DNA from: a phage
Sequence record: NC_100327.1
Reading direction: 5' to 3' (one strand)
Length of the DNA stretch: 64,000 nucleotides
Shown here piece by piece: positions 3,257 through 64,000 of the stretch. The stretch's first letter is position 1. Each line of letters opens with the position of its first letter. The notes beneath the pieces are model-generated. The model saw only the letters and a program-made list of their open reading frames with translations, was not told the origin of the DNA and ran no database searches. A program made the position numbers and the translations under genes.

Positions 3257-3460
3257 TTAACCGATACCGTGGGAAGATAGGATCATGTTAGCCATAGTTG
3301 CAACCACTCCAACCGATAATGCCAGGCCAACTACTACAACCGTGAAAATTTTCTCTAACATGATTCTACCCTCATTAATGGGCGTTGCCTTATTGCCCCG
3401 CCCTACGAAATACAGTCTATCAAGTAATAAACTATTGTCAAGATTTATTTTACTTCCCAA
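3257..3460 (-). CDS. hypothetical small membrane protein; true start probably the internal ATG near 3361
   Basis: Track start is TTG; an ATG with RBS GAGGG (aatgagggtagaatcATG) would give a 34-aa hydrophobic peptide MLEKIFTVVVVGLALSVGVV... Confidence 0.35.
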   Translation of the reverse strand: MGSKINLDNSLLLDRLYFVGRGNKATPINEGRIMLEKIFTVVVVGLALSVGVVATMANMILSSHGIG

Positions 3461-3919
3461 ACGGAAAATTCACTACCTGGCGGAATCATCTTTTTAATCT
3501 TGTTTGCTGCTGCTACCAGATCCACGGCTTGTACTGTAATAATATAACCAATTGTCGAGGCTGTTGCGTTGAAAGTTTTCATTAAATTACCCTCATTAAT
3601 GGCGGGAAGTATTCCCGCGCTATGTAGTACACTTTACCAGATTGTTGACTGTTGTCAAACTATTTTAACGATAATCATCATATGCTTTATTGACCTGGCG
3701 AATATAACATTCAAAAGCTAGATCAATAGATTTATATTCACGGATATATTCACCATAGGAAACCACATACATTTCTATAGCTTCCTCATATGCGAGGAGA
3801 ATAGAATCTAAGCCTACGATCTCAGTCTTTGCAATAATAGCCATGATTTTTATCCTCTTTGTGGTTGGTGGGGCTTGTTGCCCCCTTTGATTTATATTCT
3901 ACAGTCTTATAAGGTCATG

Positions 3920-4153
3920 TCAACTATTTTCAAAAAATTTTTCTGCTGTAATATTTTTCCCGGTAGGGTTCGCTACTTTCAAAATTTTATCATGCACCGG
4001 ACGCCCGAAAGAATAAGATCCGTATACAGTAAACCAATAATTGCCGTCAGGCTGTACTATTACCGCCGCATGTGGTACGCCTTTTTCGTTTTTGCTGACA
4101 AAATAGATCACATTGCCATTAATAGCCTCGGCGCGTTTAATTTGTTCCATCAT
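3920..4153 (-). CDS. hypothetical protein (77 aa)
   Basis: ORF-track ORF; RBS TAGGTGA upstream; GC hairpin in 5' UTR. Confidence 0.45.
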   Translation of the reverse strand: MMEQIKRAEAINGNVIYFVSKNEKGVPHAAVIVQPDGNYWFTVYGSYSFGRPVHDKILKVANPTGKNITAEKFFENS

Positions 4154-6194: not shown

Positions 6195-6525
6195 ATAGGC
6201 GATCCGCCTCAGTTAAACATATCTCATGGGCTTGATCTCTGGTTTTAGCCTCATCGAAAACTTGTTGTGCCAGGCTGCAGCGTAGGGAGACTGGAAGATC
6301 ACTATAATAGGCGTTGACAAACGTTTGAGCGTCGTACAGGTCTGAAAATACTTTACCCTTTCTATTATTCCCCTTGTCAACAATTGCAAGGATAACAAGT
6401 ACAATAGTTGCAACCACCCCCAGGAAAATAGATATAATAAACCATAAAAAGGCGGATCTACCCATCTTGCCAGCGATCCAGGCGTTGAACAAGGCAACTA
6501 CTACAGCCAAAATAATAAATTCCAT
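6154..6525 (-). CDS. membrane protein with two N-terminal transmembrane helices; start ATG at 6525 (MEFIILAVVV...)
   Basis: RBS AAAGAGG before the ATG at 6525; hydrophobic stretches EFIILAVVVALFNAWIA and FLWFIISIFLGVVATIVLVILAIV. Confidence 0.5.
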   Translation of the reverse strand: MEFIILAVVVALFNAWIAGKMGRSAFLWFIISIFLGVVATIVLVILAIVDKGNNRKGKVFSDLYDAQTFVNAYYSDLPVSLRCSLAQQVFDEAKTRDQAHEICLTEADRLFERNRKYVGQPFK

Positions 6526-6970: not shown

Positions 6971-7023
6971 AATGTTTTCCTCTTTGTTTTGTGTGGGGCA
7001 AACGTCTTGCCCCCTTGAGTTTT

Positions 7024-41359: not shown

Positions 41360-41623
41360 ATGGCAACAGAGTTAAAATTTGCATCAAACCGTAAAACTAA
41401 GAAGTATCTGTCCTCAGTAGCTCCAGGCACTGTGGTGATGTTTGTTGATGAACTTGGGGATGTGAATACAGCACTTGTTGTAAAATCACATCCTGCAAAC
41501 ATATATGTTGGGGTATTTGACCTGTTCAGAAAGGTGTTTGTAGAACTGCCTCACAGTTTGGTTGTTACAGAAATGGATGCCTGCATAGAAATTCTTGGCG
41601 AAGTTATGGTGGAGGAACAATAA
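41360..41623 (+). CDS. small protein (87 aa), tandem paralog 1 of 4
   Basis: Aligns with the next gene (MAT..F.S..K.KK....GTVV....FDL....VTE.D..I.ILGE); stop/start overlap TAATG. Confidence 0.5.
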   Translation: MATELKFASNRKTKKYLSSVAPGTVVMFVDELGDVNTALVVKSHPANIYVGVFDLFRKVFVELPHSLVVTEMDACIEILGEVMVEEQ

Positions 41624-41886
41624 TGGCTACCAGCATTGTATTCAATTCTAAGGTGAAGAACAAAAAGCGTGCAGACAGTTTTCCGTGTGGGACCGTGGTA
41701 AGTTGCGACGGAGACGGCATTCAAAACATAGTTATGATTGTCAAAACAGGAGAACATTGTGTGTGGGGGTTCGATTTAGAAAATAATGAGTTGTACGATC
41801 TGCCGCCAAACATGAAAGTTACAGAGCTTGACACCAAAATTACCATCCTTGGAGAGACAAGCTATTCAAAAGAAGGAGGAGAATAA
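41623..41886 (+). CDS. small protein (87 aa), tandem paralog 2 of 4
   Basis: Same length and conserved blocks as paralog 1; translationally coupled. Confidence 0.5.
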   Translation: MATSIVFNSKVKNKKRADSFPCGTVVSCDGDGIQNIVMIVKTGEHCVWGFDLENNELYDLPPNMKVTELDTKITILGETSYSKEGGE

Positions 41887-42149
41887 TGACCACAAAAATC
41901 ACTATCGCAGAACCGAAAGCTAACACTCAGCCTATCGAAAAGTTTAAGTGCGGTGAGGTGGTAACATTCACACCAGATAATGAAGATGCTAAGATTTTCG
42001 CAATGGTCACAGCTGAGTGGATGTGTGACAACACCACACAGGTTCTGCGTTTTGACACCTATCTTACCGATGAAATCAGGAACGACAAGATTGTGACTGG
42101 TGTGGATACTGAGATTGTTTTCTACAAGAGCTTTTTAGAGGGTTTCTGA
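41886..42149 (+). CDS. small protein (87 aa), tandem paralog 3 of 4 (more divergent)
   Basis: Same length; CGEVV block; coupled start. Confidence 0.45.
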   Translation: MTTKITIAEPKANTQPIEKFKCGEVVTFTPDNEDAKIFAMVTAEWMCDNTTQVLRFDTYLTDEIRNDKIVTGVDTEIVFYKSFLEGF

Positions 42150-45172: not shown

Positions 45173-45637
45173 TTGACACCACCACCAGATCTATATATAA
45201 TTCTCACCAACCAAACAGAGGAGATCGTCATGGATAATCTTGCAGATGTAAATGTCGAAATTGTTAAACTAAAGTTCTTGGGCTTTCGAGACCCTTATTC
45301 TTTAACAGCCATACTAATGGATACTCACTTCACACCAGGTAAAGAGTACACTGCCTTCCGTTATATTTGCGGAGATCACGAATCAGCTTACAGTGTGAAT
45401 ACAAACCTCGGAGAGGGATATTTCATCAGAGATATCACAGATCACTTGTGGGGTATGTGGGAGTTGGTGGAGGAAGAGAATAAATCCCTTCCTAAAGAGA
45501 TTTGGGTGCACACCTTCCACACAGGTAAGTTTGGAGGTACGGAACATAAGTCTATCCACTATGATGAAGAAAGTGCCATCAAACAACAAGCTGTGCTTGG
45601 TGGATCTATAGAAAAATTTGTTAAATGCGAGGACTGA
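45173..45637 (+). CDS. hypothetical protein (154 aa; start possibly the ATG at 45231)
   Basis: ORF-track ORF. Confidence 0.45.
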   Translation: MTPPPDLYIILTNQTEEIVMDNLADVNVEIVKLKFLGFRDPYSLTAILMDTHFTPGKEYTAFRYICGDHESAYSVNTNLGEGYFIRDITDHLWGMWELVEEENKSLPKEIWVHTFHTGKFGGTEHKSIHYDEESAIKQQAVLGGSIEKFVKCED

Positions 45638-45846: not shown

Positions 45847-45880
45847 AAAAGAAAGGGGCCGTTTGGCCCCTTTTTATTTA
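45847..45880. terminator. Bidirectional rho-independent terminator between convergent blocks
   Basis: Hairpin aaaggggccgtttggcccctttttattt with U-runs on both strands. Confidence 0.7.
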
Positions 45881-45888
45881 CCCCCTTG

Positions 45889-48800
45889 TTAACGAGAAAA
45901 GGTTGCGTAGGCTTCTAGACGATACTGCTGGTCACCAGGGAACATAACACCTATAGAGGCTGTCCCTAGAATCCTGCCTTCCTTTCCAGACTCCATTCTG
46001 AACCCTACCCATCCTGAACTCCTTGCAGCCTCGATGTTGTCGCTATACCCGAAAGTGGCAAGATCGTCAACACCAGCCCCAAACAGCAACTGAAGCTGAC
46101 TTCTCGGAAGCCCTATAATTTCAGGAATATACGCACCAAAGTACACCATCTGCCCTACCTTAGGACCGCTGCCGTACTCCATCGGTTTGCTTGTAGAGAA
46201 AGTCTTCATACCAGAAGTACCTGCCGGATTAGGGTATGCCCCATTTGTTGCTGTACCTATCCACATTCTCCACTGTGGTGCCATCTGTTTGACAGTAAAA
46301 GATGTTGAAGACGTTTTGCGCCCTGCATCATCAGTAACTACAAACTTTATGGTGACATTCCCAGTAGCTTTAAATGTTACCAGCCCTGTGGCAGCATCCA
46401 CTGTTGCAATGTTGGTATTACTACTTTCCCAAGTCTTTCTAATACCGGATACGTTGGAAGGGGTAATAGAAGGTTCCTGCATCTGCAGTTTACCACCCAC
46501 AATCCCTATGCCGTTACCTGGATTATACAGCACACCAACCTCGTCTACAATGTTCCCTGCTTTGAGACTATACTTCCTTGAGAAGTTGTAGGTTCCGTTA
46601 TAAGTGTGTGTCCCTGAGAAGGTGACATCTGCCTTCCCGTAAGAGATGCAAACCAAAGCATACTTCCTGTCAGGCAACGTTTCTCCAGTCTCTGGGTGAG
46701 TTTTACCCACCTGGAACACGCTCGGGTCAGTAGAGTCGTGACTATCGCTAATGGAGCTTGGACCTCCCATCAACTGTGACAAACAATTCCTTACCCATGT
46801 CCAGTTATTATCACTGGAGAAGTCCACAGTCAAATCAAACACAACCCACTCATTCGGCTTCCACACAGGTGTTGCAATGGACTTGCCTACACCACCTCCT
46901 TGGAGTGTTGCCGACTGTTCGGTGATCAGGGCCGCATAGGCCAGAGTCCCTAAACTCAGAGTCTGGCTTGCTGTCCTCACTACCTTAGAATCAGCATCTG
47001 TGAAGTTGTTGATGATTTGGAATGTGCCATAAGTGTTTTTACAGGTAATTCTGGCGTTCAGCGTGTCAATCTTCCTCACATCTGCCATAGCAGTGTTAGA
47101 CACAGAGAAGTCAGAAGCTTTAGCTGAGTTTGCCGCAACAGCAGGATCAACGTTAAGAGTTGCGTTGAACTGACAGGCAGGGGTAACCAGCAGCTTGTTA
47201 TCACCTATTTGCTTCCATGAAATACTTTGGACAGGTAGATTCCATTTAATACCTGAGAAAACTTTAGCAACCCTTGGCCCCAAAGCTCCAGTCCTGTTGT
47301 CTTTACAGCACATAGACATGGTGATCGTTGACGGAGTTGCCTGACCGAACAATTCCTGTGCTTTTGCAGAGGACATAGTGTAGAAATTGTCCTTAACAAA
47401 CTCATCAGCGGCTAAAGATCCGTCAGCCCTCCACCACTGCACCTGGTACCCGGTCTTATCCCAGCCACCGACCTGCTTCAGGTCTTCCCAGGAGATTTCC
47501 AGATCCCCAGTGGTAGGGTTGATTGCAGCAGCCCCTGGTGTTCCAGAGGACCATAATGGGATATCGAACCACGCTGGTTTAGCAGACTGCACTGCGCTGG
47601 GACCTATTGCGGCAGCAAGTTGCTGGCCCATCAATACGCGAGCATCTTTCACCAGACCCCACTCGATCATAGACCCAGAGTAACCTTCTTTCTTGTAGGC
47701 TGAGGATCCGTTCAAATGGATGAGTCGGCTTGTGCCAAAGTTATGTGCTCCACCACCGTTGTCGTCTGCAAAATTGGTTATGATTCTATCCCTGATATTT
47801 TTCCATGCCCTGCCCCCAATCTCATAGTCATGGTCATAACATCTTTGCAGTGTTGTCCAGCAAATGATCGCCATCCTTCTACCATCGCTGAATCCAAAGG
47901 CCTGATCGTTAAGCTCTCTCCACAAGTAGCAGTTAGTGGTCCACATGGCCCTATGAATGTTAAACCAGTTTATAGATTTGGCTGAGTTGTCCCACTGAGT
48001 CCCAGGTAATTCAGGCCATACTGCATTAACCAGCATGTCTTCTGTTCCTGCATCAACCAAGAACCCTCTTACCTTCTTACCCATGCCTACCCTATCTTTT
48101 GCAATCCAACTGCCAAACAATCTCAGTTTTGGACCATAGACAACATCTTCCGGATGCTCAAAAGAAATATATTTTAGGTATATTGTAGGGTCACCATAGG
48201 TGCCATCACAAACAGCTTTGTGCATGTTCTCGCCAAGGTCTAGACGAAGTCCTGTTACAACTTTAGATGTGTCGGTGAATTTGTCTGTTAAATCAAACTC
48301 ATACCACCACCAACCTGCACCCAACAATACTTTCTTACAACGCTGTGCATCTGTATCAGATATTCTCTTATCACCTGCAAAAGGCGAGTCAGCAAACTGA
48401 TAGTGCAGAGCAATCTCAAAAGGATGTGTGGATGTCCCGTTTTCTGCAAGAACTTGTTTACCTATTAAGTCGCACTTAATGATCATCACAACACGTTTGT
48501 ACCCGTTTGTTACCGGAATTTGCATAGACATGGATGTCCCGTCCATGTTTGATCTCAGTGCAGTCATGATGATATAAGGGTCAACGGCATTGCCCAGAGT
48601 CTCAGGACCGGGGATTATCTTATACTTCTTGACCTGCCCCATGATGTAGTCACTTGCGTAAGTTGCCGCATTCAAGCAAGATCCCCCACCAGGTAACTCA
48701 CCAGGTCCCCAGAAAAATGCGCCGTAACAGTTGTAGAACCACTTGTTAGGATCGTATTTATTCTTGAAGGTCTGAACCTCGTTGGCCTGTTTTGTCAAGA

Positions 48801-51525
48801 AAACCTGCGTGTCTGTGAAGATTGCAGGGTTTACTCTCGCCTGTCTTGGAGGGTAACCTGTAGTTTGGTTAAACCACAAATTACAAGAGTAATCCCTCAT
48901 ATAGTCATAATCAGAGTATTTGTTTACATCTTCGTTCCAACACATGTTTAGGTTGGTACCGCCCATGCATACAATATATTCTGCGACATACTTATCACTT
49001 CTGGTAGGAATACCTATGAACCATCTGTTAACAGGCTCATCCCAAGCTGTGCGCTCATCTTTAACGCAGATAGCAATCCAGTCATGTGTTCCTGTTTTCT
49101 TGCACACATCTCGCTTCATACCATAGTAGAACTCTTTAGTATCCGGCTCAGGTGCATTTATCAGGTAACTCCATGCCTGATTTGCATAAGTTCCATTGGT
49201 GCGTGGATCATGATCAAAGGCATACATGATGATCCTTTCCCCACCAAGATGTTCGCCAAGAGTAACTTTGACATTCACATCGCCGTAACCGTTGCGAACA
49301 ACATCCATATTATCAATAGAGATACCTCTGGGCGTGTAGGCAATTTTCAGCGAGTTATCTTCACTAGTGCCGCCAAGTGTAATCCCTATGTTGTTTGTTG
49401 TCCCGTCGACATATCTTACTGTAGCTTCCCAGCGTATTCCGAAATATCCTGCATCATGGCTGACAATTTTCAGTGTACGAGCCCCAGAGCTAGGTTTTCC
49501 AGGATCAGGCCAAGGATCTGGATGTTCATGGACAGTCAACGATGTTCCGTTTTGCTCGTTGACCTGCAACATTTTACCGCCTCTGCCGTTAGGGTTGAAC
49601 TCCCACAAGGCTTGTGTTTTCACAACATTGTCATACGTGGTACGTCTCTGATCGTAGATCTCTTGAGTCACATCGTAGGTTACAGACCCGGCATCCATTC
49701 TATGGAGTCGTACCATATACGATGTATCGCCTTCTACAACAGGTTGAGCTGCGTTAAGCCCGAAGTATACAGTATCGTTGACATGGAACTGTTTGTTTCT
49801 ACCGACAGTATGCCACTTGCCGTTGGACGGATACGCAGGAACTATGGTGTTCCAGTTCAAAGTTCTTGTCGTATGGGTTCTGCCTGTGCCATGCTTGTCA
49901 TGATAGGTTATTTTTACAGAGTACAGGCCACGTCTGTTAACATTTCTGTTATACTGGGTAACAACAACTTCGTTGGCCCCACCGTGGTTCCAGTTGGTGG
50001 AGAATTGGTAATTTGCATCTGTAACAACCGTACCTGCAGCATTTACCAACTCAATCTTGTCAATAATGAACGTAGCCCCCTCTGGCTGAGGCTTCAATTT
50101 CATCTTGACCGTGTCACCAATGTAGATATTGCTAACACTACTAACACCATTAACGTCGAAAATATCATCAACGCCCCAACTGTCTACTGGGACATTTTTA
50201 TACCAATTCTCAGGAACCTCTGTGAACCCCTGACTATTAAGTCTGCCGCCAAACAGGTTATTAGAGCCTGCAAAACTTCCCCTTGGGATGCCTGACCACC
50301 AAAGTTTGCCATTAACAACAGTAAAGGTCCCTAAGAAACCTTCTCTGTGGATACCCTGGAAATAAACACTTTCTGTCCAGCTTACTGGCATCCGTTGCTC
50401 GACGTATTTAGCCGTAGCCAGAGCCTGATAGTGAATAAAATTAGCCCTAGGACTGTTGTTTGCAGATTGTGCACCAATATCATTGCACAGATTGCGAGAG
50501 AAGCCACGATACTGTTTGGTGCCATTATTGAAGAAAATGCCACTTGTGCCGTATCCACGAGCCATTATCACCTCATGGGTGTAGGTGATATTTAAGGAAC
50601 GCCATGTGTCATCTCCCCAGACGTCTTGCCCGTAGAATACGTTAACAAGCTGTTGGTCATCAGGTTTGTGCATCCTTTCTGTGGCTATAATTGCACCATT
50701 AGGTCCACACATGAACCCTTTCCATGTCTCGCCCACCGGGATGCCTTTAAACTGGTCAAGAGTCACATGCTCGGCTGGATAAACTAGTGTGTTTTTGCTG
50801 TTATTTCTTAAGAAATCGTAACCTGCAATCCAGAATCCGTTAGGACCACCAAAAATAACCGAGTTGTCATGAACTTCACAATTAATTCTTGGATTTTTCC
50901 AAGGACCTGTCTCTGGACTTTCAGATGTTTCACCGATCTTAACTGGAGTAGCGTGTTGACTTTTGTCAACATGAAGAGAGCCGTAAGTATTATTGCCAGA
51001 GCCGTACAGGTGAAGCATACCATCAGCCTCTGGTGCAGCAATTACCCACACTGTATTGTTTACGCCACCCATTACTTCAACAAGTCTCTCAGGATGGGTG
51101 TCCAAATGCAACCCTGTTACGATCTGTTCCGGCAAAGGTGTCCACTCTCTGACACAAACATCGTTTCCACCTGCTGCCTCCGATCCGATAAGACCAGCTG
51201 TGCAACCAATATAGAAAAATTTATTATCGAATGTGCGGATTACAAATGCACGGTCAGCTCTCCAAACATGGTCTACGTTCCAAGCTGCCTCATTAGGATA
51301 GTTTATTGTATCAAGATCTCCAGTCCGACACTCTCCGAACCTATTATAGCCAGTAATATTAAGCTGACCATCATCAAAAAGTATAGCTAAGCTATTTACA
51401 TAGGATACTGTGTTGCTTGTACCATCACTGTTGTCTATTGGGTATGACAGAACAGCAAGTTCCTTAATTCCACCCCTCTTATCGAGGAAATGACGACCAA
51501 GTTTTAGCAAAGGGATTGGAAGCAT
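45889..51525 (-). CDS. very large virion protein (1878 aa), putative tail fibre/host-specificity protein with Ig-like domain
   Basis: Single long ORF; Big_2-like segment near the C-terminus (ATVDAATGLVTFKATGNVTIKFVVTDDAGR); in the structural block. Confidence 0.55.
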   Translation of the reverse strand: MLPIPLLKLGRHFLDKRGGIKELAVLSYPIDNSDGTSNTVSYVNSLAILFDDGQLNITGYNRFGECRTGDLDTINYPNEAAWNVDHVWRADRAFVIRTFDNKFFYIGCTAGLIGSEAAGGNDVCVREWTPLPEQIVTGLHLDTHPERLVEVMGGVNNTVWVIAAPEADGMLHLYGSGNNTYGSLHVDKSQHATPVKIGETSESPETGPWKNPRINCEVHDNSVIFGGPNGFWIAGYDFLRNNSKNTLVYPAEHVTLDQFKGIPVGETWKGFMCGPNGAIIATERMHKPDDQQLVNVFYGQDVWGDDTWRSLNITYTHEVIMARGYGTSGIFFNNGTKQYRGFSRNLCNDIGAQSANNSPRANFIHYQALATAKYVEQRMPVSWTESVYFQGIHREGFLGTFTVVNGKLWWSGIPRGSFAGSNNLFGGRLNSQGFTEVPENWYKNVPVDSWGVDDIFDVNGVSSVSNIYIGDTVKMKLKPQPEGATFIIDKIELVNAAGTVVTDANYQFSTNWNHGGANEVVVTQYNRNVNRRGLYSVKITYHDKHGTGRTHTTRTLNWNTIVPAYPSNGKWHTVGRNKQFHVNDTVYFGLNAAQPVVEGDTSYMVRLHRMDAGSVTYDVTQEIYDQRRTTYDNVVKTQALWEFNPNGRGGKMLQVNEQNGTSLTVHEHPDPWPDPGKPSSGARTLKIVSHDAGYFGIRWEATVRYVDGTTNNIGITLGGTSEDNSLKIAYTPRGISIDNMDVVRNGYGDVNVKVTLGEHLGGERIIMYAFDHDPRTNGTYANQAWSYLINAPEPDTKEFYYGMKRDVCKKTGTHDWIAICVKDERTAWDEPVNRWFIGIPTRSDKYVAEYIVCMGGTNLNMCWNEDVNKYSDYDYMRDYSCNLWFNQTTGYPPRQARVNPAIFTDTQVFLTKQANEVQTFKNKYDPNKWFYNCYGAFFWGPGELPGGGSCLNAATYASDYIMGQVKKYKIIPGPETLGNAVDPYIIMTALRSNMDGTSMSMQIPVTNGYKRVVMIIKCDLIGKQVLAENGTSTHPFEIALHYQFADSPFAGDKRISDTDAQRCKKVLLGAGWWWYEFDLTDKFTDTSKVVTGLRLDLGENMHKAVCDGTYGDPTIYLKYISFEHPEDVVYGPKLRLFGSWIAKDRVGMGKKVRGFLVDAGTEDMLVNAVWPELPGTQWDNSAKSINWFNIHRAMWTTNCYLWRELNDQAFGFSDGRRMAIICWTTLQRCYDHDYEIGGRAWKNIRDRIITNFADDNGGGAHNFGTSRLIHLNGSSAYKKEGYSGSMIEWGLVKDARVLMGQQLAAAIGPSAVQSAKPAWFDIPLWSSGTPGAAAINPTTGDLEISWEDLKQVGGWDKTGYQVQWWRADGSLAADEFVKDNFYTMSSAKAQELFGQATPSTITMSMCCKDNRTGALGPRVAKVFSGIKWNLPVQSISWKQIGDNKLLVTPACQFNATLNVDPAVAANSAKASDFSVSNTAMADVRKIDTLNARITCKNTYGTFQIINNFTDADSKVVRTASQTLSLGTLAYAALITEQSATLQGGGVGKSIATPVWKPNEWVVFDLTVDFSSDNNWTWVRNCLSQLMGGPSSISDSHDSTDPSVFQVGKTHPETGETLPDRKYALVCISYGKADVTFSGTHTYNGTYNFSRKYSLKAGNIVDEVGVLYNPGNGIGIVGGKLQMQEPSITPSNVSGIRKTWESSNTNIATVDAATGLVTFKATGNVTIKFVVTDDAGRKTSSTSFTVKQMAPQWRMWIGTATNGAYPNPAGTSGMKTFSTSKPMEYGSGPKVGQMVYFGAYIPEIIGLPRSQLQLLFGAGVDDLATFGYSDNIEAARSSGWVGFRMESGKEGRILGTASIGVMFPGDQQYRLEAYATFSR

Positions 51526-51537
51526 TGTGTTCTCCAG

Positions 51538-51566
51538 ATAAGAAAACCGCCCCGTCAGGAGCGGTT
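51538..51566 (-). terminator. Terminator-like hairpin
   Basis: Minus-strand hairpin ccgctcctgacggggcgg followed by TTTTCTTAT. Confidence 0.4.
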
Positions 51567-51573
51567 AGATATA

Positions 51574-53319
51574 TTAACGTTGTGCAATTACTACGTCTAC
51601 AATATCACCAACACCACAATACGTTAATTGCAGCAAGGTAACACTGTTAGCCTTGTTGTTAATAACAGGTGTTGCCGACAGGATAGCATACTTATCGTGC
51701 AAAGTCACGTTGTGACCTACAGCATCCTGAATGACATAGATAACTGCAGTGAATGGATAAGGTTTATCTTCCGCTGATGTCCCAGGCCACTGTCCTATTG
51801 TAAAATCCCCTTTCGCGTGGACAACATACATGCTGGCCTGCCCGTTAGGTGTCCATGTCCCACTGGACGCGTCAACCTCCTCTAAGTCAAAATCTACCTT
51901 TCCTGCGTGGAAAGTAGGGGCAGTAATGGTTTTACCCGCCTCAATTTCTTGAGAGGTGGTTATCTTACCACTGGAGTTAATGCCATTACAGACAAAGTTG
52001 ACATTAGAGAAGTCTGGCAGCCACCCGGTCACTGTGCCGGATATTTCAAGGTTGTGAAGGTAGGTGGTGCCAGTCCCTGCGGCGTTTAAACTAACATCTC
52101 CATTTACCTGCAAGTTTCTGGTAATGTTGCAGTTTTCAGAGTTTGCAGTTGTTGCAGTTAAAGTGGTGGTGGTTAGCTCGGTAATTGTACCTTTATTGGC
52201 TGTAAGCCCTTCTCCTTCAAAAGTTGCACGCTCATTGACTCTTAGAGTATTCAGAGCTATATTTTGGATAGAGGCTGTACCTCGAATAACTACAGACCCG
52301 CCAACCTCCAAATCGCCATTTATCAATGCATCACCCGTGCTTTCAATATAGCTAGGGTAGATCATGGTGCCATCGACAGAGTATGTTATCCCTGTAACGG
52401 TACCTGTCACCTCAAGGTTCTTAACCCTGGTGGTCCCATCGACCTGCAATGTCGGTTCGGTTGCTGCCTTCATGGCATTACCACGAATGTACACGTAGTC
52501 AAAAAAGTTATTACCCAGACCATCAAAATGCACATCGTTATTATTGGCCACTGGTTTCCCAGAAGTTATAGTGTCAGCTATAACCCTGTGGGTGGACACT
52601 TCATGAGGTTGCAGCTCTGTACTTCTCCAGTCTGCATGCTTAGGATCGCTCCACGCAAAAGTAAGTGTAGAAGTATTTGCCGTGAGGATTAGATTCCTAA
52701 AGCGTGCAGTAGAATCTGCCCCATTAACAGGTCCATGTAAGGTAAGGGTGCCACCAACTATAGTGTTAGCGAGTTCTGTAAGACCTTTTACCACCAAAGA
52801 CCCTACAGTAACTTTCATCCCCTCCATGGCTTTAAATATGCTATCAACATAGTCAACAACAAACTCTGTGTTTGCTATGGACTCTGACTTATCGTCCATT
52901 GGAGGTGTAGGTACTCGTGGGTCACCTTCGAACCTCGGGCTGTTAAGTTTTGCGTAGTATTTTGCCATTACTGCAGAGTCGGTATATAATCTCCAGTTTG
53001 GAGATTGTGAAGGATCTGCTGGCATTCTAACCGGGTTAGATTTTGATGCTGCGGGAGCGTACCACCACTGAGGGCCTGTGTCCCCTTTAAACTCGTACAG
53101 CTGGTTAAAAACTGTTGTGGATGCACCATACGCCCAAGGGATCGGTGGCGTTTTAAAATAAAGGTTGTCAAGCATGGCTTTTCGTACCGTAGGGATGGTG
53201 GTCCCATCCTCTACGACAACTTCATCCACAGCGTTACCGTTGACAACCAAGTGCAAACGTTCAGAATCAACAATTACTTGATCTACCGCCTGCTCAAAGC
53301 TTGTCATGTCTTGCGCCAT
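51574..53319 (-). CDS. putative tail fibre/tailspike protein (581 aa)
   Basis: Repetitive beta-rich segments (LEVTGTVTG, LQVNGDVSL, LEISGTVTG); structural-block context. Confidence 0.45.
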   Translation of the reverse strand: MAQDMTSFEQAVDQVIVDSERLHLVVNGNAVDEVVVEDGTTIPTVRKAMLDNLYFKTPPIPWAYGASTTVFNQLYEFKGDTGPQWWYAPAASKSNPVRMPADPSQSPNWRLYTDSAVMAKYYAKLNSPRFEGDPRVPTPPMDDKSESIANTEFVVDYVDSIFKAMEGMKVTVGSLVVKGLTELANTIVGGTLTLHGPVNGADSTARFRNLILTANTSTLTFAWSDPKHADWRSTELQPHEVSTHRVIADTITSGKPVANNNDVHFDGLGNNFFDYVYIRGNAMKAATEPTLQVDGTTRVKNLEVTGTVTGITYSVDGTMIYPSYIESTGDALINGDLEVGGSVVIRGTASIQNIALNTLRVNERATFEGEGLTANKGTITELTTTTLTATTANSENCNITRNLQVNGDVSLNAAGTGTTYLHNLEISGTVTGWLPDFSNVNFVCNGINSSGKITTSQEIEAGKTITAPTFHAGKVDFDLEEVDASSGTWTPNGQASMYVVHAKGDFTIGQWPGTSAEDKPYPFTAVIYVIQDAVGHNVTLHDKYAILSATPVINNKANSVTLLQLTYCGVGDIVDVVIAQR

Positions 53320-56717: not shown

Positions 56718-58790
56718 TTATGAGAAGTCTGGCGGGACAACATCTTCTACATACCCTTTCAGAGCAACCTGCCCCATATGAAGCACGGTAGAATCTCTAG
56801 CGGTAACAGTGATGCTGTCAGACATTACTTGCGGGTATGCCCACACATACTGTTTTACCTCAGGGTATCTATACTCTATAGTTGCCATGTTTCCGCAAAT
56901 ACATCTCCATAAAAATTCTTGGTAATTCCTAGTTGGGTCGTAACCATATACCGGAGCAAGCTCTTTACTAGGAACGAACCCTGTAAGGTATTGTATTTCA
57001 GACGGTTGCCAACCTAACTTAACGATAGGTATGTTTACAGACTCTTTTGCCTTTTCAATACCTCCCTGCATCACCCAATCGTAGCACTCGGTGCAGAAGA
57101 AATCAAGAGCACCTGCTTCCTTTTTATATTGGTCAGCAAGGTTAAGCTTTTGCGTAAGCTCGGTTTCCATAATGGTTGGGAAAAACAGCAGAGCTGTCAT
57201 CTGAGCTGATGCAGCGTGTGCCTTTATTGCCTTTGAAATAGCAGCAATACGAGCGCCAAGCTTACCACGACAAAATGCTACATACTTATCGTAAACACCG
57301 CCAGTTTTAGGATCGTCAATAGTCCCAATATCTAATGCATACTCGCCTGTCTCATCATAAAACGCCTGTTTTGTAGGGTAATCATAAATACAAGGTCTAC
57401 GAGTATCGGTATTGTACCACCACCACGGTTCACCAACCTGCATAATCACTGGCAGGTTGTTTCTCATAGCGGCTGATGCAAAATTCTTAAATACTGCAGT
57501 AAGGAAATTCATACCCTCTTCAATGGTTGGAGACAGGAGGTAGCTACAAGGTGTATACCCTGTTTTAGCGTAGTTATCGTTCCAGTCTCTTTGGGTCCAT
57601 TCCAACGGGCAGGCATCGCTGAAAAGCTCAAAACTTACAGATTGCATAACGTCGAAGTTATGTCGTTTGGCATTGTACATAAAATCATCATGCCATTTAT
57701 AAGCTGCAGCGTTTAGCGCTCCTGTTCTGTTTATAGACCATTGGGTTCCTGACCATGTGTAGTCATAATAATGACTCATACCAACATAATGGTTTATGGT
57801 TCCGGTATAGCCCAGACGCTTGATATTGTTCAACACCCTTAAAGGGGACACGTTCCACATATCGTCATATGCGGTGCAGATCCCAACGTCGTGCTCTCTC
57901 ACCTGGATATTATTAAGTTGCATCATTTTCCAGCCTGTGTCTGGCTGAAGCAGATCTAGGCGCAACTCACACTCTACATTTTCCGTTCTTGGATCTGTGC
58001 TATTACTTACCCAGTCTTTAGGCATAAGTGGTATTAAAATCCTTCTCACCTGCCGAGGATCAACACCCATCATGTTGTTGTTCTGGTCCATCCCGACGCA
58101 GTCCTCAAAATCAATATGAATTTCTGCAACATTTTTATCCTCTGAGATGCTGACAGCATATTGAGCTAAAGGAACATAGATGATTGTGCCATCAACAAGG
58201 TCTACAGTCATAATCATCTTTTCAGGAGTGGAGAAGTTGCTGGCGTTGGTTATTGACATTCTGAACCAAAGCTTGGTGTTTCTCATCTCATAGTGATCAT
58301 CAAACCCAATACCGAAATGGTCATACTTGTCAACTGTTTCCCAAATGCACCCAGCCATACCTCCATATGTTCTTGACACTAAACGGTTAATACAACAGTT
58401 GTTATCTGCAACAATACAGGTACTTTCAGTCTGCTGAGTGGTTGTAACCCAATATCTTGGGTGAAACATTCTCTCCTCAACAGTATCCCAAGATATCCTG
58501 TCAAGATTCTCATCTGAAACTATTGTACATTTCGCCCTTTGTGTTCCAATCATCACTCCTTGAGATTTTGATGAAAACTCCATAAAGAAGCTTCTTGGCA
58601 ACCTGTTGGGTAATTTGTCAACAATTTCCACTGGGATCTCAATACTGGTTGCCCCAACTGGGATAGTTACATCGCCCTCAACATGATCATAATCTCTACC
58701 AGGAACGGCAGTATCCTGAACTGTGCGGTAATGAAACTGTGCAGCCATTGTAGAGTAATCACGGTAAGGTTTAAAAACAGCTGTTGCCAT
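56718..58790 (-). CDS. putative tail/baseplate-associated structural protein (690 aa)
   Basis: Long ORF in the structural operon; aromatic-rich. Confidence 0.4.
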   Translation of the reverse strand: MATAVFKPYRDYSTMAAQFHYRTVQDTAVPGRDYDHVEGDVTIPVGATSIEIPVEIVDKLPNRLPRSFFMEFSSKSQGVMIGTQRAKCTIVSDENLDRISWDTVEERMFHPRYWVTTTQQTESTCIVADNNCCINRLVSRTYGGMAGCIWETVDKYDHFGIGFDDHYEMRNTKLWFRMSITNASNFSTPEKMIMTVDLVDGTIIYVPLAQYAVSISEDKNVAEIHIDFEDCVGMDQNNNMMGVDPRQVRRILIPLMPKDWVSNSTDPRTENVECELRLDLLQPDTGWKMMQLNNIQVREHDVGICTAYDDMWNVSPLRVLNNIKRLGYTGTINHYVGMSHYYDYTWSGTQWSINRTGALNAAAYKWHDDFMYNAKRHNFDVMQSVSFELFSDACPLEWTQRDWNDNYAKTGYTPCSYLLSPTIEEGMNFLTAVFKNFASAAMRNNLPVIMQVGEPWWWYNTDTRRPCIYDYPTKQAFYDETGEYALDIGTIDDPKTGGVYDKYVAFCRGKLGARIAAISKAIKAHAASAQMTALLFFPTIMETELTQKLNLADQYKKEAGALDFFCTECYDWVMQGGIEKAKESVNIPIVKLGWQPSEIQYLTGFVPSKELAPVYGYDPTRNYQEFLWRCICGNMATIEYRYPEVKQYVWAYPQVMSDSITVTARDSTVLHMGQVALKGYVEDVVPPDFS

Positions 58791-61083: not shown

Positions 61084-64000
61084 TTAGTCGTGAGACTCGT
61101 TCCAAGGTCCCTGGAAGCTAGAGTTTGAACGACTTACTATCACAGTAGGACAGGAAATTGTGACACCTGTCACGCTCGACGTTGACCACGGTGTGTAAAT
61201 CTCGATAACAATGTCTATAGTTTGTTCACCAAGACCTGTTATCCCTACCGCACACATGCCGTTGTTGTCGTTAAAATACTTCTTGCCAGCAAGGATCTGA
61301 TGACCAGCTATCCATGCATTCAGTTGGGAGCTGGCAAGAGTACCATTCAGTTTAAAGAAGAATGTTACGTTCTTACCCTGACCTGAAACGTTATCTACGT
61401 ATCTCCACCTCCAACGGCAAACCCTTTGCTGGGAGTTATATACTGGAGCACAATCCCCGTAAGTCCTGTGTGCAACAATTGCACCTTCGAACTGGTTAGC
61501 ACGGATAACAGAAGCTTCTACACGACCACGGAAGGTACCTCCGGTTGCATCTATGGTGCCCCTAAAGCTACCATTATTGGCATAAACATCCCCACGGAAG
61601 GTACCACTAGTGGCGTTAACTGCCCCTGTGAAGTTACCAGAACTAGCGTTGATGTTGCCTTTCACCCACACATCCATAAATTGGGCGTGCCCGTTCTTGT
61701 TAATATACCAACCGTATTTATGGTACCCGTTGCCATCGTAGTTGTTTGACGAAATTTCTTGTGCAATCTTAGCAGAGGAGATCGTGCCATTCTCTATAAA
61801 AGCGTCTTTCAAGAACGCTTGGTTGTTCTTGATTGCGAAAGCAAGGGTTGCTGTTCCATTGCCAGGGTTGTATACCGCAAAATTGTTTGCGCTAACCATG
61901 AAGTAGGATTGAACTTGGCCTCCAGACCCTTCCATCCCCAACTGAATACCTGCAACATATTTATTCCCTGCGGAGTCTACCTGTATTTTTGTGCCCCATT
62001 GAGCATTTACTTTACCCTCTAAGTCGGTTACAGCCTTAGATGTTGTAGCTACTGCAGCCCTGATCTCAGACACATCCCCAACATCATCAATGATCTCCTG
62101 CTTAGCAACAGCAAGTTCTTGACGAATAGCTGACGCTGTGCCGTTGATAAGGTCCACAGTGGCTTTATTGGTATCGGAAATTGTAGCATCCAGCGCTGTT
62201 TTTGTGGAGGTCAGTTTTCCATCCAAAGCATCAATCGCTTGCTTGTTGGTAGAAATCTCCCCACGTGCAGAAGTTATCTGCTCTGACAGTGCAGATGTTT
62301 TCTGATTCAACAAGTCAGTGGTGGCCTTGTTGGTATTGGCAATCAAGGTGTTGAGGTCAGTTTTTGCGGTAGTTATCTTGCCGTCAAGGGTGGTATAGTT
62401 TTTAGATACCGTCGCGTTTGTCTGACTAATCTTTTGATCCAGAGTTTCAGATGTCCTGTTCAAAAGATCCACAGTGGCCTGGTTAGTGCTCAAGATGCTT
62501 GCGTCAAGTTCTGTTCTCTGAGTATTGATCTTACCATCCAGAGTTTTATCTCCGGCTAAATACCCGCTCTCAACTCCCTCTATCTGCTCTACCAGCTCAC
62601 CTTTGGCGGCAACCAATTTCTCATCTAAAGCCTCTGTCTTTTTGTTCAGAAGATCAGTAGTTGCTTTATTGGTTGTCTCAATCAGGGATGCCAATCTTCC
62701 ACTTTCAGTGTTCAGATCGTTGGTGAACTTGTTCTGTGCAGCAACAAGTTTCCTATCCAGCGCTGTGATATTGCCATTGACATCCTCAAACTTCTGAGTT
62801 GTCTCTGTAACTACCGCACCTATTCTGTCTCCAAGTTGCTGGAATGCCTCATCTACCCTACCATCCATGTACCTGTTAAGTTCTGTGACACGATTTTCAA
62901 CCTCTTCAATAGAGGAATCCAAAGTGCTCATCAACTCTTTATAAGTTTCTGTCTTTTTGAATTCAGCATCTATCTGAGGCATCAAATCCTCAATAGAGGT
63001 GTAGCAGCGTGCAGCGCATTCTACAAACTGAGAACTACCAAAAGCGTTTGTGGTTCGAATATACCAATAATAAACCTTATCGTTCTGCAGACCTTCAGAT
63101 GTCCAAGTTGAACCAACACCCATACGGGTGGCGTTTGAAGTAACGGTTGCATCACTGGTGTCGGGCAACCTTGTCATACCGGATGTCCAAAAGTCATACT
63201 GGGTGCTAACACTTGCTAAATCCCTACTATGCGGAATCAAGGTGATAGCAAAGTATCCTTGCTTAACCTCTACAGAAACCGGAGCTTCAGGTGCCTGAAT
63301 GTTAAACTCACAATACGCTTCTGGAGATACACCACCTTTATAAGATGTTGCAACAACAGTGGCTGTGTAGGAACCTTTAGTCAGACCTTCAACACGGACA
63401 AACTGCTCAACTGTCTGTGCTGTCCAAACAATCTCTCCGTTCTTTCTTACCTGCACAATATTTTGAGCGTAAGTCCCAACGTTGTCCCAGGCCAAAACAC
63501 CGTGAGTTACTTCCCCAGCTTGGAGAACGGAGTATCTGAAGTTTTGCGGCTGAGCTACACCGGACGGGGATATCGGAATATCTACATCGCCGGAATCCGG
63601 AAGTTGCCCTGTGGCATCATTCCACTCTTTAGCATCTTGACGAAGTTTTACCTTGACACCGCCCTTTTTGGTGAACTCCCATTCAAGAACCCTCATTTCT
63701 TGGCCCACGATACCAATACTTGGGAGGTCCATTGTAACATAACGGCCAGGCTTAAATTTAAAACCTCGCATATTGCAGGTGACTTCAATAATCCTGCCAG
63801 CTCTAGCACGTCTTAGGAAGATTGCAGAAACACGCTGAGCTTGATAAGGACTGGTAACAAAGCGATAATCTATATCGATTATCTTTCTTTCTCCATCCTT
63901 CTCTACCCACTCTGGGACAAATACTGATGGAAAATCTGTTTCAGAATACCCTTTAGTCGGACTGGTGAATCTGCCAGTTATTGTGTTGGATCTTTTGTCA
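61084..64000 (-). CDS. central tail fibre/host-specificity (J-like) protein, 5' end beyond the window
   Basis: The frame stays open upstream of the track ATG at 63771 to the window edge; FN3-like segment (YYWYIRTTNAFGSSQF) then coiled-coil repeats with recurring TDLLN. Confidence 0.55.
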   Translation of the reverse strand, partial: DKRSNTITGRFTSPTKGYSETDFPSVFVPEWVEKDGERKIIDIDYRFVTSPYQAQRVSAIFLRRARAGRIIEVTCNMRGFKFKPGRYVTMDLPSIGIVGQEMRVLEWEFTKKGGVKVKLRQDAKEWNDATGQLPDSGDVDIPISPSGVAQPQNFRYSVLQAGEVTHGVLAWDNVGTYAQNIVQVRKNGEIVWTAQTVEQFVRVEGLTKGSYTATVVATSYKGGVSPEAYCEFNIQAPEAPVSVEVKQGYFAITLIPHSRDLASVSTQYDFWTSGMTRLPDTSDATVTSNATRMGVGSTWTSEGLQNDKVYYWYIRTTNAFGSSQFVECAARCYTSIEDLMPQIDAEFKKTETYKELMSTLDSSIEEVENRVTELNRYMDGRVDEAFQQLGDRIGAVVTETTQKFEDVNGNITALDRKLVAAQNKFTNDLNTESGRLASLIETTNKATTDLLNKKTEALDEKLVAAKGELVEQIEGVESGYLAGDKTLDGKINTQRTELDASILSTNQATVDLLNRTSETLDQKISQTNATVSKNYTTLDGKITTAKTDLNTLIANTNKATTDLLNQKTSALSEQITSARGEISTNKQAIDALDGKLTSTKTALDATISDTNKATVDLINGTASAIRQELAVAKQEIIDDVGDVSEIRAAVATTSKAVTDLEGKVNAQWGTKIQVDSAGNKYVAGIQLGMEGSGGQVQSYFMVSANNFAVYNPGNGTATLAFAIKNNQAFLKDAFIENGTISSAKIAQEISSNNYDGNGYHKYGWYINKNGHAQFMDVWVKGNINASSGNFTGAVNATSGTFRGDVYANNGSFRGTIDATGGTFRGRVEASVIRANQFEGAIVAHRTYGDCAPVYNSQQRVCRWRWRYVDNVSGQGKNVTFFFKLNGTLASSQLNAWIAGHQILAGKKYFNDNNGMCAVGITGLGEQTIDIVIEIYTPWSTSSVTGVTISCPTVIVSRSNSSFQGPWNESHD

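Follow-up and report, generated by a model that had tools for sequence, protein, structure and literature searches.

What does the giant gene at the end of a tail-fibre operon contribute to an rV5-like phage? The locus that raises this question lies in a stretch of phage DNA of 64,000 nucleotides (nt) from sequence record NC_100327.1, referred to here as the window. A single open reading frame (ORF) of 5.6 kb in this window encodes a protein of 1878 residues, the counterpart of gp27 of phage rV5 and called gp27 below. The original prediction had placed this ORF at 45889-51525 within a fibre operon, and both statements hold; the strand, which it had left unstated, is minus. We propose that gp27 is an accessory, low-copy, multi-domain adhesin docked on the fibre gp28, serving host range beyond E. 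coli K-12, and we consider the chances of this proposal to be about even. The ORF and the signals flanking it are:

45889..51525, minus strand: ORF of the rV5 gp27 / Bas54_0041 orthologue, complete, 1878 residues, stop codon included
51532..51535, minus strand: ribosome-binding site GGAG, 6 nt before the gp27 ATG, read from the sequence
45852..45873, minus strand: terminator-like hairpin downstream of gp27, closing the late fibre operon

The ATG is located at 51525 and the stop codon, included in the ORF, at 45889. An ORF of this length cannot be a product of chance, and gp27 is a real, already annotated gene of rV5-like phages, ordinary in kind, rather than a new gene. Since its size and mass (1878 residues, 208,334 Da) agree with those of rV5 gp27, we identify the two. 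The group of rV5 gp27 orthologues, phrog_15684, spans residues 1-1878 of 1878, and gp27 belongs to this group, synteny included. The "structural protein with Ig domain" (Ig, immunoglobulin) of Escherichia phage rV5_ev168 is 99.3% identical in nucleotides and 99.5% in amino acids; other records carry the annotations "Ig-like domain-containing protein" or "lateral tail fiber protein with intimin domain". Matches to the DNA were found in 120 phage records, nearly all of them Vequintavirus, and 107 cover at least 80% of the gene at 80-99% nucleotide identity. Vequintavirus orthologues such as Bas54_0041 and LL12 gp27 are 92-99.5% identical over the full length of the protein and have the same position and neighbours. 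The most divergent homologue (45% identity, from a metagenome) shows the same synteny. A foreign origin judged by composition was considered and rejected (GC 0.457, versus 0.439 for the window).

The gene is the final one of the late fibre/baseplate operon. It is preceded, on its own strand, by gp28 (a fibre of 581 residues), gp29, the two short tail fibres gp30 and gp33 with their chaperone, gp34 and baseplate genes. Genes downstream are on the opposite strand, so that no gene, and hence no assembly chaperone gene, follows gp27 on its own strand. The elements that suggest a link between gp28 and gp27 are located at the junction of the two genes:

51577..51891, minus strand: C-terminal ~105 residues of the upstream fibre gp28 (ORF 51574-53319), a conserved domain and the proposed docking site of gp27
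51545..51566, minus strand: terminator-like hairpin in the 48-nt gp28-gp27 gap, with a 9-bp stem, 6 G-C pairs and a T-run; a proposed attenuator
51490..51525, minus strand: N-terminal peptide MLPIPLLKLGRH with the motif M[LFY]PIP, common to last-gene proteins of five genera; the proposed docking peptide

In five genera, a fibre of the gp28 type precedes the last gene of the operon, and the protein encoded by this last gene begins with M[LFY]PIP plus hydrophobic residues. Besides gp27, proteins with this start are ESCO13 gp245 (891 residues), 4MG gp038 (567 residues), PVP-SE1 gp40, phi92 gp152 and Av05_106, which share its operon position. The first three of these also have the RCC1-like N-terminal domain of gp27 described below (30-39% identity), followed by Big_2 domains, while phi92 gp152 and Av05_106 lack this propeller. 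All are shorter than gp27, by a factor of 2-9, and lack its core of ~1000 residues; the ESCO13 protein ends in a domain like the RcGTA head spike, which gp27 does not have. On the side of the partner, ESCO13 gp246 resembles gp28 only at its C-terminus, where identity to the final ~105 residues of gp28 is 51%; the remaining, collagen-like part of gp246 is unrelated. The homology of gp28 to 4MG gp039 and Av05_105 extends over the full length, and a domain of the same type also ends phi92 gp151; 385 phage records contain it.

The gap between the two genes is 35-48 nt long in six phages of five genera (the window, ESCO13, 4MG, phi92, Av-05 and Csp-D17), and in all six it contains a GC-rich hairpin, then a T-run and then a ribosome-binding site. 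In the compared loci, the hairpins are at ~6975-6995 (L003), ~3475-3495 (L004), ~6310-6325 (L007), ~4075-4095 (L013) and ~3355-3378 (L005). Their stem sequences differ among the phages; therefore, structure rather than sequence is conserved. Among precomputed Pfam labels, a gp27 homologue carries PF26918, and the gp28 homologue carries PF26208/PF26209 ("Phage_phiTE_241_N/C").

Published work bears on both the accessory role and the location of gp27. The BASEL study assigned rV5 gp27 as the last large lateral tail-fibre gene, while stressing that the matching of genes to fibres is unsettled (PMC8594841), and Piya et al. counted LL12 gp27 among seven putative fibres (PMC7229145). Kropinski et al. 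listed gp27 among 19 proteins identified by mass spectrometry (MS) in rV5 virions (PMC3606486). In the Vequintavirinae phage W70, MS of virions likewise revealed RCC1-like proteins (PMC11370258). The claim that gp27 is a virion protein thus agrees with the literature and with operon position, but the rV5 listing is a weak one: three non- or semi-tryptic peptides, 9 spectra and 3.1% coverage by MudPIT (multidimensional protein identification technology; PMC3606486 supplementary table), in a list with similarly weak identifications of gp1 (rIIA-like) and gp228 (PMC3606486).

The transposon-insertion preprint HIDEN-SEQ (10.1101/2025.11.20.689424) reports that disruptive insertions are tolerated in bas54_0041, so that infective virions can form on E. 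coli K-12 without it; we verified that this gene is the gp27 orthologue in phage MaxBurger. Therefore, infection of that host does not hinge on gp27 as an essential receptor-binding protein. According to the same preprint, some fibre genes are conditionally essential on clinical isolates, and the gp28 orthologue bas54_0040, in contrast to that of gp27, is absent from its list of dispensable fibre genes. In several GenBank records (H8, H28, H31, H35, H39 and H49), the gp27 orthologue is split into two or three ORFs, and entries for phages ime, APECc02 and V18 in BFVD also show it as separate ORFs. Either a dispensable gene is decaying here through frameshift or nonsense mutations, or the splits come from errors in sequencing.

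The conserved end of gp27 is a domain directly at the N-terminus:

50191..51525, minus strand: RCC1-like beta-propeller domain, residues 1-445, the most conserved part, supported by Pfam, PHROG and PDB profile matches

Conservation declines from the N- to the C-terminus. In a homologue 76% identical overall, this domain is 90-100% identical and the rest 36-80%; in homologues ~50% identical overall, it is still 70-80% identical. On the basis of the following sequence matches, we call residues 1-445 an RCC1-like beta-propeller, with a putative seven-bladed fold. Pfam PF25390 matches gp27 with an E-value of 3.8e-4 and also hits 12 of the 16 family members; the domain is matched at 1e-7 by phrog_4219, "regulator of chromosome condensation"; and the ESCO13 copy passes the cut-off of the RCC1 repeat PF00415 (24 vs 21.7). 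A profile of the domain (A4) matches PDB entries of the RCC1-like domain (RLD) of HERC1 (2e-8), HERC2 (1e-6) and RPGR (1e-3), as well as UVR8 and RCC2; these matches cover both halves of the domain, the RPGR match (profile positions 283-411) being in the second. Scores of gp27 itself are below the Pfam cut-offs (20.3 vs 150 bits for PF25390, 13.8 vs 22 for RCC1_2). The domain heads the last fibre-operon gene in Phapecoctavirus, Seunavirus and other phages, 213 records in all, with ESCO13 gp245 reaching 39% identity to gp27 over residues 1-207. Blade-type repeats of the form G-x-N-x-x-G-x-L-G are shared with the HERC1/2 RLD, RPGR and UVR8, but the cellular roles of such proteins, as guanine nucleotide exchange factors or UV sensors, are irrelevant to gp27. 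A partial protein assigned to "Eggerthella lenta" (P0018) is 100% identical to part of the domain and is probably an assembly contamination.

The original prediction had described this end of the protein as Gly/Asn-rich with repeated blocks. The first part is loosely true, as G+N per 100 residues is 16-23% in residues 1-750 and 11-14% in 950-1600, within an overall composition that is fairly even (G 9.9%, N 6.7%, W 3.0%, Y 4.3%). The repeated blocks could not be detected: self-BLAST found no internal repeats in gp27, and in the profile-profile self-comparison (hhalign) the best probability is 18% in residues 441-1878 and 19% within the N-domain. About two blades only keep the canonical RCC1 motif, and the AlphaFold2 model of residues 1-760, built from an alignment of 16 family sequences, has a pLDDT (predicted local distance difference test) of 38.9. 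The "blocks" are probably degenerate propeller blades with their G-x-N-x-x-G motifs.

Following the propeller is a long region of beta structure, most of which is isolated in sequence:

49846..50181, minus strand: Ig-like beta-sandwich, residues ~449-560 (~500-555 in the narrower placement), from PF16403 and AlphaFold strands
48634..49845, minus strand: beta-rich region including the W/Y-rich stretch, residues 561-964, without detectable relatives outside the family
48151..48633, minus strand: confidently predicted beta-sandwich, residues ~965-1125, AlphaFold model m1a65b1aebbc5

The first Ig-like domain is suggested by sub-threshold matches to PF16403 (Bact_surface_Ig-like) in 12 of the 16 family members (residues 506-558 of P0003), and by strands that are only moderately confident in AlphaFold model 1 (pLDDT 50-71). 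The Trp/Tyr-rich "long middle" of the original prediction shrinks to a local peak around residues 750-900, where W+Y reaches 11-13%. Over residues 561-964, AlphaFold gives low confidence. For the sandwich at ~965-1125, which corresponds to residues 201-360 of model m1a65b1aebbc5, the pLDDT is 59-86; residues 1125-1323 are predicted as a poorly resolved helical region. When residues 451-1650 were searched exhaustively with phmmer/HMMER against the representatives of 1.84 billion clusters, the only two matches came from the family of gp27 itself. The core has no match in Pfam, NCBIfam or PDB, the family profile found nothing relevant among PDB sequences, and word-indexed searches with the whole protein, the N-domain and the C-terminal 134 residues returned close family members only. 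Scanning four segments with Pfam at E<=10, searching NCBIfam and scanning each of the 16 family members singly added RCC1-like and Ig-like hints only. The AlphaFold2 model of residues 761-1878, from the same 16-sequence alignment, has an overall pLDDT of 54.0. The earlier statement that "none can be named from sequence" nevertheless does not hold, since RCC1-like, Big_2 and esterase-like modules are all nameable.

Could gp27 simply be a homotrimeric lateral tail fibre attached to the baseplate or an adaptor, its bead-like appearance being an artifact of poor monomer modelling? GenBank and BASEL do label it "lateral tail fiber protein", the conservation gradient is typical of fibres, and phages of the phi92 type show three sets of trimeric fibres, some of which have no gene assigned to them. 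Unlike the neighbouring fibres, gp27 gave no match in Pfam, PHROG or NCBIfam to a trimerisation signature such as a coiled coil, collagen, a triple beta-helix, a T4 gp12-like domain or the S74 chaperone, and the operon provides no assembly chaperone after it. The RCC1 propeller, the Ig-like domains and the N4 gp65-like modules are all monomeric folds. Furthermore, nine fibre proteins are annotated in Bas54/Bas49, of which cryo-electron microscopy (cryo-EM) found only three, as proximal fibres, the distal fibres being unplaced as in the cryo-EM of phi92. We therefore regard the ordinary trimeric fibre as unlikely.

The segment that follows carries the one enzyme-like module of gp27. Its parts, together with gp34 from the same operon, are:

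47578..48087, minus strand: SASA/SGNH-esterase-like module, truncated, residues 1147-1316, motif VDAGTEDM, from similarity to phi92 gp153
47251..47577, minus strand: beta-sandwich, residues 1317-1425, of a kind that recurs towards the C-terminus of N4 gp65, AlphaFold pLDDT 65-72
56718-58790, minus strand: gp34, 690 residues, with Calx-beta, NCTSP_N and NCTSP TIM barrel (PF23845, 9e-80) domains by Pfam

The single lead came from a targeted comparison of genes at the same end of the operon, in which phi92 gp153 (295 residues) aligned with gp27 1218-1419 at a BLASTP E-value of 1e-8. For the gp153 family, a profile built from phi92, Av-05 and three distant phages aligned by hhalign to the gp27-family profile with a probability of 83.5% and an E-value of 8e-6; the homology extends over ~220 columns (224 in the alignment) of gp27 1147-1417. 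All other 350-residue windows of gp27, and 8 column shuffles, gave at most 1.4%. Judged from these sequence scores, the two segments are probably distantly homologous. In turn, phi92 gp153 matches N4 gp65 (PDB 9LC0) at 9.9e-25, at gp65 506-593 and 911-1276, so that the relation of gp27 to gp65 is transitive, through gp153 (83.5%, then 1e-24). NCTSP_N (PF23844) and the NCTSP TIM barrel (PF23845) are present in N4 gp65 and absent from gp27. The modules of gp65 thus appear to be split here over two proteins, gp34 (the N-terminal modules of gp65, with NCTSP_N and TIM barrel) and gp27 (the part related to its distal region, with esterase-like module and beta-sandwich).

In phi92, gp153 (L007 7109-7996) is a separate protein that looks like a SASA-type esterase without the N-terminal nucleophile block; the possibility that it is a wrong-strand annotation was rejected, as only the plus strand is open there. 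Av05_106 (L013 4101-6044) has the same module, with a fuller esterase-like domain, fused behind Big_2 domains in a single protein of 647 residues starting with MYPIP. The equivalent of Av05_106 is divided between gp152 and gp153 in phi92.

These similarities raise the alternative that gp27 is an active receptor-destroying fibre, an O-acetyl esterase or depolymerase that acts on capsule, O-antigen or enterobacterial common antigen on its way to the outer membrane. Some records annotate the related module of phi92-like phages as "tail carbohydrate esterase", although the SASA match of phi92 gp153 is itself weak (16.3 bits vs a cut-off of 24.8). Adjacent fibre proteins carry glycan-modifying domains, namely the TIM barrel of gp34 and the glycosidase/deacetylase domains annotated by BASEL (PMC8594841). 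An invariant block of acidic residues is present in gp27 1160-1290, and the ~600 residues of undefined fold could hide an enzyme. The expected catalytic residues, on the other hand, were not found. The invariant VDAGTEDM of gp27 aligns with the block III motif WGQGENDA of SASA, replacing the QGEND of gp153, and the alignment starts only from block III, so the first third of the fold, including the block I nucleophile (GQSN), is lacking. S1139, the single serine in a suitable upstream position, is not invariant in the family, no histidine is found at the position aligned to the DGRIH of gp153, and Pfam gives no direct SASA (PF03629) match on gp27 at E<=10. In the absence of the nucleophile block and of a conserved Ser or His, a catalytic role for residues 1147-1316 is not supported. 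No enzyme family in Pfam, NCBIfam or PDB was matched by sequence or profile, Foldseek with the C-terminal model returned Ig-like arrays only, and depolymerase-type domains (pectate-lyase beta-helix, sialidase, glycoside hydrolase, lyase) were not found by sequence, profile or fold search. An active enzyme is thus quite improbable. Of the suggestion in the original prediction, a receptor-binding protein with enzymatic domains, the first half fits the conservation gradient, while the second half finds neither an enzyme match nor catalytic residues.

The C-terminal part consists of further Ig-like modules and a variable tip:

46486..47238, minus strand: most variable region, Ig-like beta-sandwich array, residues 1430-1680, from identity and Foldseek
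46327..46482, minus strand: Big_2 bacterial Ig-like domain (the "intimin" domain of annotations), residues 1682-1733, from Pfam
45892..46278, minus strand: C-terminal beta domain, residues 1750-1878, allelic among Vequintavirus, a candidate ligand-binding tip, from phrog_215 coverage

Residues 1430-1680 are only 12-24% identical to those of distant homologues, against 70-80% for the N-domain. The Ig-like domain that had been predicted near the C-terminus is confirmed: Big_2 (PF02368) scores 35.3 bits at residues 1682-1733, above the gathering cut-off of 22.8, and PDB matches of this region include intimin and the Sap S-layer protein. Residues 1430-1878 taken together are conserved least; the AlphaFold model is confident over them, and Foldseek searches with it (PDB, BFVD) returned strings of Ig/cadherin-like sandwiches only: protocadherins, the Sap S-layer protein, NUP210, phage Ig-domain proteins and fragments of the same protein. 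Within Vequintavirus, the last 289 residues fall into two main allele classes, with at least 95% and ~80% identity, the window copy being in the first. No relatives of the terminal ~130 residues were found outside the genus.

Residues 1592-1877 are covered by phrog_215, whose PHROG category is "head and packaging". A fibre or decoration attached to the capsid or neck, like Hoc or the RcGTA head spike and loosely adhering to mucus or cell surfaces, would be consistent with this category, with the end of the related ESCO13 protein (PDB 6TB9, 5.7e-14), with the likening of gp140 and gp151 to a head-spike protein in the phi92 paper and with a potential capsid-binding N-terminal domain noted for gp151 in the phi92 record, but it is highly unlikely: gp27 itself has no match to 6TB9, the category reflects Ig-domain similarity only, the gene closes the tail-fibre operon in all the genera examined, and rV5 already has the decoration protein gp61.

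Several known systems offer parallels to parts of gp27. N4 gp65 is a receptor-binding protein of 10 domains that forms six gp64-gp65 heterodimers instead of a trimeric fibre (PMC13434306). By analogy with gp65 (PDB 9LC0, 9YF4), gp27 may be a long, multi-domain, non-trimeric receptor-binding protein; gp65 differs in forming, with gp64, a sheath around the tail of a podovirus, and nothing alike is indicated for gp27. T4 Hoc and the C-terminal Big_2 domain of lambda gpV are Ig-like domains exposed on a virion protein, as proposed for gp27. Weak adherence to glycans has been proposed for these proteins, which are dispensable in the laboratory. Hoc and gpV, however, are small capsid or tail-tube decorations, whereas gp27, at 208 kDa, is encoded in the fibre operon and carries many further domains.

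In the accessory-adhesin proposal, gp27 would be a chain of independently folding domains and not a trimeric beta-helical fibre. From the N-terminus, the predicted order is the MLPIP peptide, the propeller (1-445), an Ig domain (~449-560), ~600 beta-rich residues without relatives, the degenerate esterase-like module with its sandwich (1147-1425), an Ig array including Big_2 (1430-1745) and a small allelic C-terminal domain. The conserved N-terminus would anchor on the conserved C-terminal domain of gp28, and the hairpin that separates their genes, acting as a terminator, would hold the amount of gp27 below that of gp28. The variable distal Ig-like and C-terminal domains, possibly together with the propeller and the esterase-like module, may then reversibly contact glycans of the host surface; these contacts would widen or tune the host range and be unneeded on E. 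coli K-12. We favor docking because the gene pair is shared, the divergent homologue has the same synteny, the hairpin recurs in six phages, and bas54_0040 is absent from the list of dispensable genes. A more detailed version is a tentative suggestion about which we are more doubtful than confident: a monomeric, N4 gp65-like gp27 would plug its MLPIP peptide into the conserved C-terminal domain of a trimeric gp28 fibre, through a joint common to five or more genera in the Vequintavirinae and Stephanstirmvirinae, with the structurally conserved terminator setting copy number and a ~1000-residue core made of folds for which 15 billion proteins offer no detectable relative in sequence.

Several observations weigh against the proposal. 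The gp28-type domain also occurs without an M-x-PIP partner, in Klebsiella Mydovirus, where it is in the last gene, and in GAP32, where the next protein starts with MIYLS. A rule that the domain always precedes an M-x-PIP gene was therefore rejected, and docking cannot be the only reason for which the domain exists. The RCC1 match falls well short of Pfam's whole-domain cut-off (20 vs 150 bits). The link between gp27 and gp153 is weak when taken alone (16 bits by hidden Markov model), and the family profile of gp27 by itself fails to reach N4 gp65 (0.7%; no PDB match). The AlphaFold models are poor (pLDDT 38.9 and 54.0), so the predicted domain borders and oligomeric state are tentative. Finally, MS support for gp27 in virions is at noise level.

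A few observations in the window and in the matched records fall outside this argument. A further feature is:

41360-41623, 41623-41886 and 41886-42149, plus strand: three head-to-tail ORFs of exactly 87 residues each, possibly tandem paralogues

A perfect sigma-70 consensus (TTGACA, 17 nt, TATAAT) is found at 45173-45201 on the plus strand, just downstream of gp27 and opposite to it. The ORF of gp37 was listed at 61084-63771 (minus strand, 895 residues; 1279 residues in rV5), but a truncation was rejected, as the frame is open to the window edge at 64000. Between 15 and 20 records labelled "Campylobacter phage" (C. jejuni host, MG0656xx) are 95-100% identical to rV5-like and phi92-like phages of E. 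coli, and their host label looks doubtful.

The assignment of genes to parts in the multi-fibre apparatus of rV5-like and phi92-like phages, which are broad-host-range candidates for therapy and biocontrol, is stated to be unsettled in the literature. The present analysis adds a domain map of gp27 that replaces "hypothetical / Ig-like protein" and leaves an enzymatic role unsupported. It also adds a proposed assembly rule, in which the C-terminal domain of gp28 pairs with the M-x-PIP N-terminus of the next product and the intervening terminator sets their ratio. This rule and the sequence isolation of the ~1000-residue core are points of moderate interest. Should the pairing rule fail, gp27 would be an ordinary accessory Ig-domain protein; should it hold, it could guide swaps of distal modules between phages. 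If true, the fibre-on-fibre joint would place one component of the multi-fibre "Swiss army knife" of these phages and would offer a portable docking module for host-range engineering.

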